DNA of 64,000 bases, from assembly GCA_900542445.1 (NCBI GenBank), contig UQNN01000007.1, forward strand, positions 26,399 to 90,398, written 5' to 3'. Shown piece by piece: positions 19,368 to 19,868 of the stretch (position 1 is its first letter; each line of letters starts with the position of its first letter). The translations under genes were made by a program, and so were the position numbers. The notes beneath the pieces were generated by a model. The model searched no databases and had not been told where the DNA came from. It was given only the letters and a program-made list of their open reading frames with translations. Source of the DNA: an uncultured Eubacteriales bacterium (lineage in GTDB: Bacteria; Bacillota; Clostridia; Christensenellales; Aristaeellaceae).

Positions 19368-19579
19368 ATCGACATGCCCCTTTCGCCGATCTTTTTTGTC
19401 ATCTTTCCATTGAAAGCCGCATATACTTCCCATAGGGGAAGATATATACCAATTTCTTCTCTATTTTATTCTACCACTCTTCCTTGTTTTTTTCAACTTA
19501 CCAATGCACAAAGGAAACGTTTTAGATCTAATAAAAACGATAGATTTTTCTTTTATCCCGGCTCATATATAACGACGCT

Positions 19580-19613
19580 GCCAATTCTATATAATTCCCA
19601 GCGGATTACTTTC
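19580..19613 (-). promoter_or_regulatory. Candidate sigma-A promoter for the acidic-protein/adhesin operon, followed by a ~210-nt AT-rich leader
   Basis: On the minus strand: TTGAAA (revcomp of 19608-19613), 16-nt spacer, TATATA. Weaker than the divergent plus-strand promoter. 19440-19620 is conspicuously AT-rich for this window. Confidence 0.35.
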
Positions 19614-19623
19614 AATTTTTCTC

Positions 19624-19652
19624 TTGACAAGCCGCGCTGCATCCTGTATAAT
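19624..19652 (+). promoter_or_regulatory. Consensus sigma-A promoter (TTGACA, 17 nt, TATAAT) with no protein gene downstream
   Basis: TTGACA at 19624-19629, 17-nt spacer, TATAAT at 19647-19652. Confidence 0.6.
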
Positions 19653-19658
19653 GATCTT

Positions 19659-19866
19659 GTTGTTAGAGATATCTAACACCTCCCTGAACCAAATTGCGGA
19701 TGAAGTTTGACGCACTCCTCCGCAGCCTTGCAGGTTTGACGCCCCTGCAAGACACGCCCGCCTGAGCGGTATCAGGCAAGGACCACTCCCCCTGTTTTCT
19801 CCCTGTTTCTTAAAAAGAAAGACCCTGCCGGGCATGGACGCTGCCCGGCAGGGTCTTTCATATCCT
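19659..19866 (+). ncRNA. Putative ~200-nt small RNA, from the consensus promoter to an intrinsic terminator. Identity unknown
   Basis: Predicted TSS near 19659. A 5' hairpin gttaga-gata-tctaac follows, with no convincing ORF (one 21-codon ORF lacks an SD). The 3' end is a perfect 14-bp stem gaccctgccgggca/tgcccggcagggtc at 19821-19855 followed by tctttcatatccttttt. Confidence 0.3.
19821..19858. terminator. Bidirectional intrinsic terminator serving the rlmA-ltaE-MBL operon (minus) and the putative sRNA (plus)
   Basis: 14-bp GC-rich perfect inverted repeat. The T-run tttcttttt follows on the minus strand. Confidence 0.7.
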
Positions 19867-19868
19867 TT

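Follow-up and report, generated by a model that had tools for sequence, protein, structure and literature searches.

A conserved promoter-terminator pair with invariant C-rich segments as a candidate small RNA gene in uncultured human-gut Clostridia

The question raised by this locus is whether a consensus promoter facing an intrinsic terminator is the gene for a small regulatory RNA (sRNA), and how such an RNA might act. The locus lies near position 19,700 of a 64,000-nt stretch of contig UQNN01000007.1, from an uncultured Eubacteriales bacterium; we refer to this whole stretch as the window and number positions from its first letter. An initial annotation, made from the letters of the window alone, had proposed a candidate RNA of ~200 nt here. 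Judging from comparisons with related loci, we consider it very likely that the promoter-terminator pair is a genuine sRNA gene. The fuller statement, which leans on analogy with known regulators, is that this is a stand-alone, non-coding sRNA gene of ~205 nt whose product would act in trans by pairing with ribosome-binding sites (RBSs) through anti-Shine-Dalgarno sequences. We give it a probability of about 0.5.

The promoter, TTGACA-17-TATAAT, matches the sigma-A/sigma-70 consensus at 12 of 12 positions (Table 1). The window contains six promoter-like sites with at most one mismatch, four of them perfect, and shuffled sequences are expected to yield 0.04. The match is therefore not a chance one, and its description as a textbook promoter stands. 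Two other perfect copies lie 12-14 nt upstream of tRNA genes, at 40702-40730 (tRNA-Ile/Asn) and 51537-51509 (tRNA-Val(GAC)), so this organism uses the exact consensus for stable-RNA promoters. Among the 18 full-length related sequences, the hexamers and the 17-nt spacing are invariant and the spacer and discriminator bases vary, which is the signature one would expect of a functional promoter. The A/T-rich, UP-element-like block just upstream of the -35 hexamer is where conservation begins sharply in all loci. In most relatives it contains an imperfect palindrome, ATTCC-N4-GGAAT, and this block is possibly a regulator site as well.

About 205 nt separate the promoter from a hairpin whose core (19821-19855) is a perfect GC-rich stem of 14 bp with a 7-nt loop. 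This stem had been recognized before; we found that it can be extended to 18 bp and that it is called as a terminator on both strands. The hairpin begins 10 nt past the stop (19869) of a minus-strand gene for a 336-aa protein, named ComEC/Rec2-like by one source (hereafter ComEC/MBL-like), and there is a T-run on the minus strand too. The terminator is thus not an orphan, as had been thought; it ends both the sRNA on the plus strand and the convergent ComEC/MBL-like operon on the minus strand. Its plus strand reads GGG-UUUUUC in most relatives, and the stem is kept in all of them, with wobble changes that give 22 G.U cells on the plus strand against 3 A.C cells. The predicted transcript has a minimum free energy z-score of -5.5.

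We assembled the set of related loci from three sources. Scanning genomes for the 336-aa protein yielded four species-level metagenome-assembled genomes (MAGs) from uncultured Clostridia of the human gut (L001-L004; the protein is 87-92% identical). A pattern derived from the element, run against metagenomes, added 15 human-gut contigs (L013-L027), and proteins with 79-82% identity led to another three loci (L028-L030). MAGs and metagenome contigs are the only records of the organism. The block at 19583-19860 was present in all 22 related loci from these human-gut MAGs and metagenomes, in every case directly past the stop codon of the ComEC/MBL-like gene, and the promoter and terminator were kept together in all of them. 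A covariance model of 18 distinct homologues scored 228-258 bits, with one copy per locus. The edges of conservation are sharp, with a start at 19583, ~40 nt upstream of the -35 hexamer, and an end at the hairpin, at about 19860.

The DNA upstream of 19583 is unrelated between genomes of two contexts. The upstream flank is a surface-protein (adhesin) operon in the window, L002, L013, L015, L018, L021-L025 and L027. It is a co-oriented mgtE gene, with no adhesin operon adjoining, in L001, L003 and L004 (Pfam MgtE, MgtE_N and CBS confirmed in L001 and L003), and L014, L016, L019 and L020 have the L003-type flank. Because the flank differs in this way, the element is a separate module. In L001, the mgtE gene's own terminator hairpin stands immediately before the block, so the sRNA block needs its own promoter. 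The proposal that the RNA shares regulatory DNA with the adhesin operon is not supported: the block starts at 19583, the adhesin promoter lies at 19468-19496, and the block also occurs without the adhesin operon.

As a neutral comparison, we set the part of the transcript at 19659-19816 against four-fold degenerate sites of the two nearest genes. In L001, L002 and L004, transcript identity was 94-96%, compared to 66-77% at the four-fold sites of the 336-aa gene and 84% at those of the lyase gene. For the L003-type sequences, the values were 79% (84% without indel columns), 72% and 82%, respectively.

The range of the element is narrow. Searches with blastn, nhmmer and the covariance model detected nothing similar at the syntenic site of L005-L012, where the neighbouring gene has 59-69% protein identity; the distant relatives checked were P0012 (69%), P0018 (61%), P0031 (Ca. 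Ventricola; 60%) and P0061 (Christensenellales; 59%). The sRNA was found in relatives in which the neighbouring protein is at least about 79% identical, and by this sequence evidence the gene appears to be restricted to a single genus-level clade of uncultured Clostridia from the human gut. Covariance model R1 detected no paralogs in the window and 19 loci, and viral contigs gave 0 matches to a pattern made from the twin loops described below. A weak R1 match in L014 (11418-11594, minus strand; 21.8 bits, E = 0.0014), about 3 kb from the true copy, was probably driven by a terminator.

The consensus structure was predicted with RNAalifold, and pair statistics were calculated on the 18 distinct sequences. 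From 5' to 3', the RNA is predicted to form a terminal hairpin (H1), two hairpins that both carry UUGACGC in the loop (H2 and H3), a fourth hairpin (H4), an unpaired tract of ~40 nt and the terminator. The H1 core is the tight 5' hairpin, GTTAGA-GATA-TCTAAC, that the initial annotation had pointed out, and it is present at 19662-19677. The H3 loop reads CUUGACGCA in L028-L030, so the UUGACGC heptamer is its constant core. Standard pairs occupy 99.1% of the pair cells, and several pairs have changed. The loop-closing pair of H1 is A-U in nine sequences, U-G in five, U-A in two and A.A in two. In H2, pair 46/58 switches from A-U to G-C (9:9) and pair 48/56 from U-A to U-G; in H4, pair 107/125 switches from C-G to U-A (9:9) and pair 108/124 is U-A, C-G or U-G. 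Double changes occur in three pairs (H1, H2, H4; 25 cells), and the covariation score was reached by none of 500 shuffles. Because the alignment holds essentially two sequence types and thus few independent events, we rate the support from covariation as modest.

The pairing pattern also distinguishes between the strands. There are 48 G.U cells when the stems are read on the plus strand and 4 A.C cells, which would be G.U on the minus strand. The structure therefore fits a plus-strand transcript and not a minus-strand RNA or a DNA palindrome.

Variation is unevenly distributed among the unpaired parts of the RNA. Four segments, namely C-rich site 1, the H2 loop, the H3 loop and the tract at 19783-19811, have 2 variable columns out of 51, compared to 32 of 53 in the other unpaired parts (linkers, H4 loop and A-rich spacer). 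The difference is significant by Fisher's test (p = 2e-10), a value that is optimistic since the segments were picked post hoc. In the Boltzmann ensemble of the window-type sequence, the invariant segments are unpaired with probabilities of 0.69-0.97. The tract has a mean probability of 0.6-0.77 in three of four folded sequences; in L018 the values are 0.33 for C-rich site 2 and 0.61 for C-rich site 3. Values are lower in some L003-type sequences, and the H2 loop falls to 0.48 in L018.

These data bear on the possibility that only transcription matters here. The promoter, firing at the shared terminator, could be an insulator or collision device that limits read-through from the ComEC/MBL-like gene into downstream genes, or the block could be a conserved DNA-level regulatory module. 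The terminator is indeed common to the convergent operon, the element is always attached to the 3' end of the ComEC/MBL-like gene, and a DNA operator would be an equally good reading of the palindrome at +3..+18. However, the 160 transcribed nucleotides upstream of the terminator are more conserved than neutral sites, and the changes in the stems are compensatory. We consider both forms of this explanation improbable because conservation is patterned, with invariant single strands and variable linkers, and because the G.U to A.C asymmetry is specific to a plus-strand RNA.

We asked if the region could encode a small protein. The initial annotation saw no credible open reading frame (ORF) between promoter and terminator. 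Two short ORFs do exist, one of 21 aa on the plus strand and one of 38 aa on the minus strand, and in several relatives, as in the window, neither frame is interrupted. The 21-aa ORF has no Shine-Dalgarno sequence upstream, its ATG is ACG in L021, L022, L024, L025 and L026, and in L002 its second codon is a stop; its C-terminus varies, and the ratio of nonsynonymous to synonymous changes is 6:3. The 38-aa ORF has a frameshift in L001, another N-terminus in the second sequence type and a ratio of 13:3, and it lies downstream of a terminator without a promoter. Neither ORF behaves as coding in these comparisons, in agreement with the earlier statement. Given start loss, nonsense and frameshift changes and the excess of nonsynonymous over synonymous changes, a small-protein gene is barely credible. 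The notion of an independent non-coding unit of ~200 nt is strongly supported by the block shared among 22 loci, by conservation above the neutral level and by compensatory and G.U changes in the stems.

The RNA does not match a known Rfam family. The initial annotation could not match it to 6S RNA, signal recognition particle (SRP) RNA, transfer-messenger RNA (tmRNA) or RNase P, and suggested a cmscan search of Rfam and a survey of conservation and covariation in relatives; the survey gave the results above. A cmscan over 19300-20000 at E ≤ 10 returned only weak matches centred on the terminator (best 21 bits, compared to a gathering score of 97) and no known family, and a scan of the whole window at gathering thresholds returned three tRNAs only. 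The locus resembles housekeeping RNA genes (6S, SRP, tmRNA, RNase P, tRNA) in its perfect TTGACA-17-TATAAT promoter, as at the two tRNA loci of the window. It differs from them in the lack of an Rfam match and in its absence from the syntenic site at about 70% neighbour-protein identity or less, and its fold is not the rod of 6S RNA.

A promoter, a structured leader and a terminator in succession also resemble an attenuator, and the element might be the remnant of a 5' leader or riboswitch that has lost its downstream gene, or the tail of a mobile element. In contrast to such leaders, the terminator is followed by the stop of the convergent gene in 22 of 22 related loci, and never by a co-oriented ORF. 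There was no Rfam cis-regulatory match even at E ≤ 10; there were no repeats, paralogs or viral-contig matches; and purifying selection has been kept across species. We regard this origin as highly improbable.

What the RNA might do is suggested by its invariant single strands. Site 1, together with the preceding ACA, reads CACCUCC, the anti-Shine-Dalgarno core. C[U/C]CCCUG occurs three times in the invariant segments, and U-runs follow the copies in sites 2 and 3. Three redundant CUCCC...UUUU sites, distributed over a loop, a linker and the loop of the terminator, bind the Shine-Dalgarno region of lapB in the case of LhrC (PMC4132741). RNAs of the LhrC class bind G-rich Shine-Dalgarno regions and block translation, including that of an adhesin mRNA, and the UCCC motif is also used by RsaE, RNAIII, SprD and FsrA (PMC4132741). 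In RoxS, several C-rich regions can base-pair with G-rich stretches of the targets, either at the RBS or at the 5' end (PMC5419742).

Like LhrC1-5 of Listeria monocytogenes, the sRNA has its own promoter and terminator and three unpaired CU-rich sites, two of them with U-runs, and the tract at 19783-19811 has the CUCCC...UUUU form of the LhrC sites (PMC4132741). Unlike LhrC, which is ~110 nt long and multicopy, it is ~205 nt long and present in single copy; its C-rich sites lie in linkers and not in loops, and its loops carry UUGACGC. There is no similarity to LhrC in sequence or by covariance model, and the host belongs to a high-GC lineage of uncultured Clostridia. With RsaE/RoxS it shares several C-rich regions able to pair with G-rich targets, and the layout of a stand-alone gene with hairpins and a terminator (PMC5419742). 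In contrast to RsaE, which is conserved across Bacillales, it is clade-restricted, has another length and fold, and gave no match to Rfam RsaE (RF01820) at E ≤ 10.

UUGA, with which both internal loops begin, fits the YUNR motif; loops of this type have been described as scaffolds on which pairing RNAs make their first contact (PMC3834814). This likeness to antisense or kissing-loop RNAs with YUNR U-turn loops (SR4/bsrG, plasmid copy-number RNAs) has limits: there is no cis-encoded complementary partner, since the opposite strand has no gene over the sRNA loops, and the window shows no enrichment of the loop complement.

In the mechanism that we propose by analogy, a strong sigma-A promoter would start the sRNA and the bidirectional intrinsic terminator would end it. 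A 5'-terminal hairpin that protects against 5'-exonuclease is a general principle in Firmicutes, and H1 might shield this RNA in the same way. First contact with an mRNA would possibly be made through the YUNR-type loops, and the C-rich sites would then pair in trans with the G-rich Shine-Dalgarno regions of several mRNAs; such pairing could block ribosome binding and alter mRNA stability. The family has not been described before, and as a regulator it would be of an ordinary kind, the RsaE/RoxS/LhrC kind. Its link to the RsaE/LhrC class would be one of functional analogy only.

Several results weigh against this proposal. When the 5' and 3' C-rich regions were compared by RNAduplex with the start regions of roughly 39 crudely called genes in the 64-kb window, the duplex energies were no better than for shuffled seeds. 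The loop complement GCGTCAAR occurs eight times in the window, with 7.9 expected, and is not enriched. By simple counting, about 1.2 repeated 7-mers are expected in 207 nt, so repeated 6-7-mers alone are not improbable. The covariation comes from few independent events between essentially two sequence types, and the sequence is not homologous to RsaE, LhrC or another Rfam family. Two target look-alikes, the lyase RBS at 21907 and a gene start at 42281, were rejected, as neither was significant.

The main alternative to pairing with Shine-Dalgarno sequences is an RNA that binds and titrates a protein. The twin UUGACGC loops and the GGACGC of the terminator loop would then be repeated sites for a dimeric or multimeric RNA-binding protein, comparable to the GGA loops of CsrB/RsmZ-type RNAs. 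Consistent with this, all homologues keep UUGACGC unchanged in the two loops although the stems that carry them vary, GACGC recurs a third time in the terminator loop, and the searches of start regions and of the loop complement in the window found no base-pairing target. However, no gene for an RNA-binding protein is linked to the element, whose neighbours are the ComEC/MBL-like gene, the lyase, an RlmA-like methyltransferase, GNAT, and mgtE or the adhesin operon. The invariant C-rich tracts would be left unexplained, a repeated 7-mer in 207 nt is by itself statistically unremarkable, and no protein is known to recognize a UUGACGC loop. We think a protein decoy rather unlikely. CsrA-type GGA sites were rejected because three GGA in about 200 nt is the chance level.

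The sRNA could also be a decoy of the translation apparatus, one that competes globally for Shine-Dalgarno sequences or titrates a factor that reads the anti-Shine-Dalgarno tail or the Val anticodon stem-loop. The 3' tail of 16S rRNA ends in ...GGAUCACCUCCUUUCU, and the unpaired tracts resemble it, with CACCUCC at site 1 and GGAUCACUCCUCC in the second sequence type. The tRNA-Val(GAC) of the window (51419-51495, minus strand) has the anticodon loop UUGACAU, with which the sRNA loops share UUGAC at the same loop positions; this likeness may be a coincidence. We consider a decoy of this kind very improbable, and pairing of the C-rich sites with individual RBSs remains the reading that we prefer.

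Very little is known about regulatory RNAs in the abundant uncultured Clostridia of the human gut, and this sRNA falls outside all curated families. The candidate is unusually clean, with a perfect promoter, a shared bidirectional terminator, a sharply bounded block, non-coding character by test and invariant candidate seed sites, and it would be a good entry point to post-transcriptional control in this lineage. It would add an example of the Firmicute UCCC/anti-Shine-Dalgarno design reaching high-GC gut Clostridia. It is one more clade-restricted sRNA and brings no new principle.

Table 1. Features of the locus and of the genes next to it, in window coordinates.
Feature	Position	Strand	Remarks
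Promoter-upstream block, AATTCCCAGCGGATTACTTTCAATTTTTCTC	19583..19623	+	A/T-rich, UP-element-like
Promoter TTGACA-17-TATAAT	19624-19652	+	sigma-A/sigma-70 consensus, 12/12 match
Predicted sRNA transcript, ~205 nt	19659..19865	+	predicted start 19659 +/- 2; 3' end in U-run past the hairpin
H1, 7-bp hairpin UGUUAGA-GAUA-UCUAACA	19661..19678	+	5'-terminal
C-rich site 1, CCUCCCUGAAC	19679..19689	+	0/11 columns variable (18 sequences); mean probability unpaired 0.69-0.89
H2 hairpin	19696..19723	+	7-nt loop UUGACGC (19707-19713), 0/7 columns variable
H3 hairpin	19727..19751	+	9-nt loop UUUGACGCC (19735-19743), includes UUGACGC, 1/9 columns variable
H4 hairpin GCCUGA-GCGGUA-UCAGGC	19760..19777	+	variable loop of 5-11 nt, 8/11 columns variable
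C/U-rich unpaired tract	19783..19811	+	1/24 columns variable; C-rich site 2 at 19787-94 and site 3 at 19799-805 (CUCCCCCUGUUUU, CUCCCUGUUUC)
Intrinsic terminator, 18-bp stem	19817..19859	both	bidirectional; loop with GGACGC
21-aa ORF, MKFDALLRSLAGLTPLQDTPA	ATG at 19700	+	
38-aa ORF	19663-19779	-	
5531-aa protein of the surface-protein operon	1465-18060	-	SpaA, Cna_B and DUF7601 domains
433-aa protein, first gene of the surface-protein operon	18066-19367	-	secreted, acidic repeats
336-aa ComEC/MBL-like protein	19869-20879	-	no Pfam domain

The genes around the element are arranged differently from what was first supposed. Both flanking operons (1465-19367 and 19869-24272...) are on the minus strand, and they are therefore in tandem and not convergent. 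The second operon consists of genes for GNAT, an RlmA-like methyltransferase, a beta-eliminating lyase and the ComEC/MBL-like protein, in this order. The AT-rich character reported for 19440-19620 is real, with a G+C content of 0.34-0.40 over 19300-19700 compared to 0.55-0.67 on both sides. The leader of ~210 nt postulated for the adhesin operon is not supported. The sole minus-strand promoter-like site for this operon is TTGAAA-17-TAGAAT with a TG extension at 19496-19468, from which the leader to the ATG at 19367 is about 94 nt. This promoter sits 87 nt outside the sRNA block and is kept in relatives with the adhesin context, the divergent L002 among them. The longer leader would require a minus-strand promoter within the conserved block, a possibility that we considered and rejected: TTGAAA can be seen by eye there, with spacers of 16-20 nt and poor -10 hexamers, and the scan did not call it.

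We made several minor observations in the related loci. In L002 (~5015-5072) and L004 (~5012-5104), there are 58-90 nt extra between the shared terminator and the ComEC/MBL-like stop, each with a short inverted repeat. In L008, a perfect 20-bp palindrome (TAGTTAGTATATACTAACTA, ~3925-3945) followed by a CU-rich stretch resembles H1 and the C-rich tract. It gave no hit with the covariance model, lies in a 534-nt region upstream of another, unannotated gene, and was discarded.

Perfect consensus promoters are strongly over-represented in the window. The tRNA genes that follow two of them start at 40742 (tRNA-Ile/Asn) and 51495 (tRNA-Val). Another perfect promoter, at 39808-39780 on the minus strand, precedes a minus-strand ORF of 464 aa (start at 39716) by about 60 nt. 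Back-to-back with it is a near-perfect plus-strand promoter, TTGACG-17-TATAAT (39861-39889), which is followed by an untranslated leader of ~130 nt and a small membrane-protein ORF (ATG 40027, Shine-Dalgarno sequence AGGAGG). This leader region (39861-40030) matched no Rfam family and may be an uncharacterised leader.

Near the adhesin operon, CAATGCACAAAGGAAACG at 19497-19520 lies directly upstream of the minus-strand -35 hexamer. Its retention in L002, divergent as that locus is, makes it a candidate site for a regulator of this operon. Opposite the gene for the 5531-aa surface protein there is a plus-strand open frame of 4691 aa (1594-15669), which almost certainly is no gene but an artefact of composition or repeats. 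The 433-aa secreted protein owes its acidic (EEPEATEEPEVV)n and (PEPTAT)n repeats to tandem repeats of 18, 36 and 54 nt at 18733-19157.

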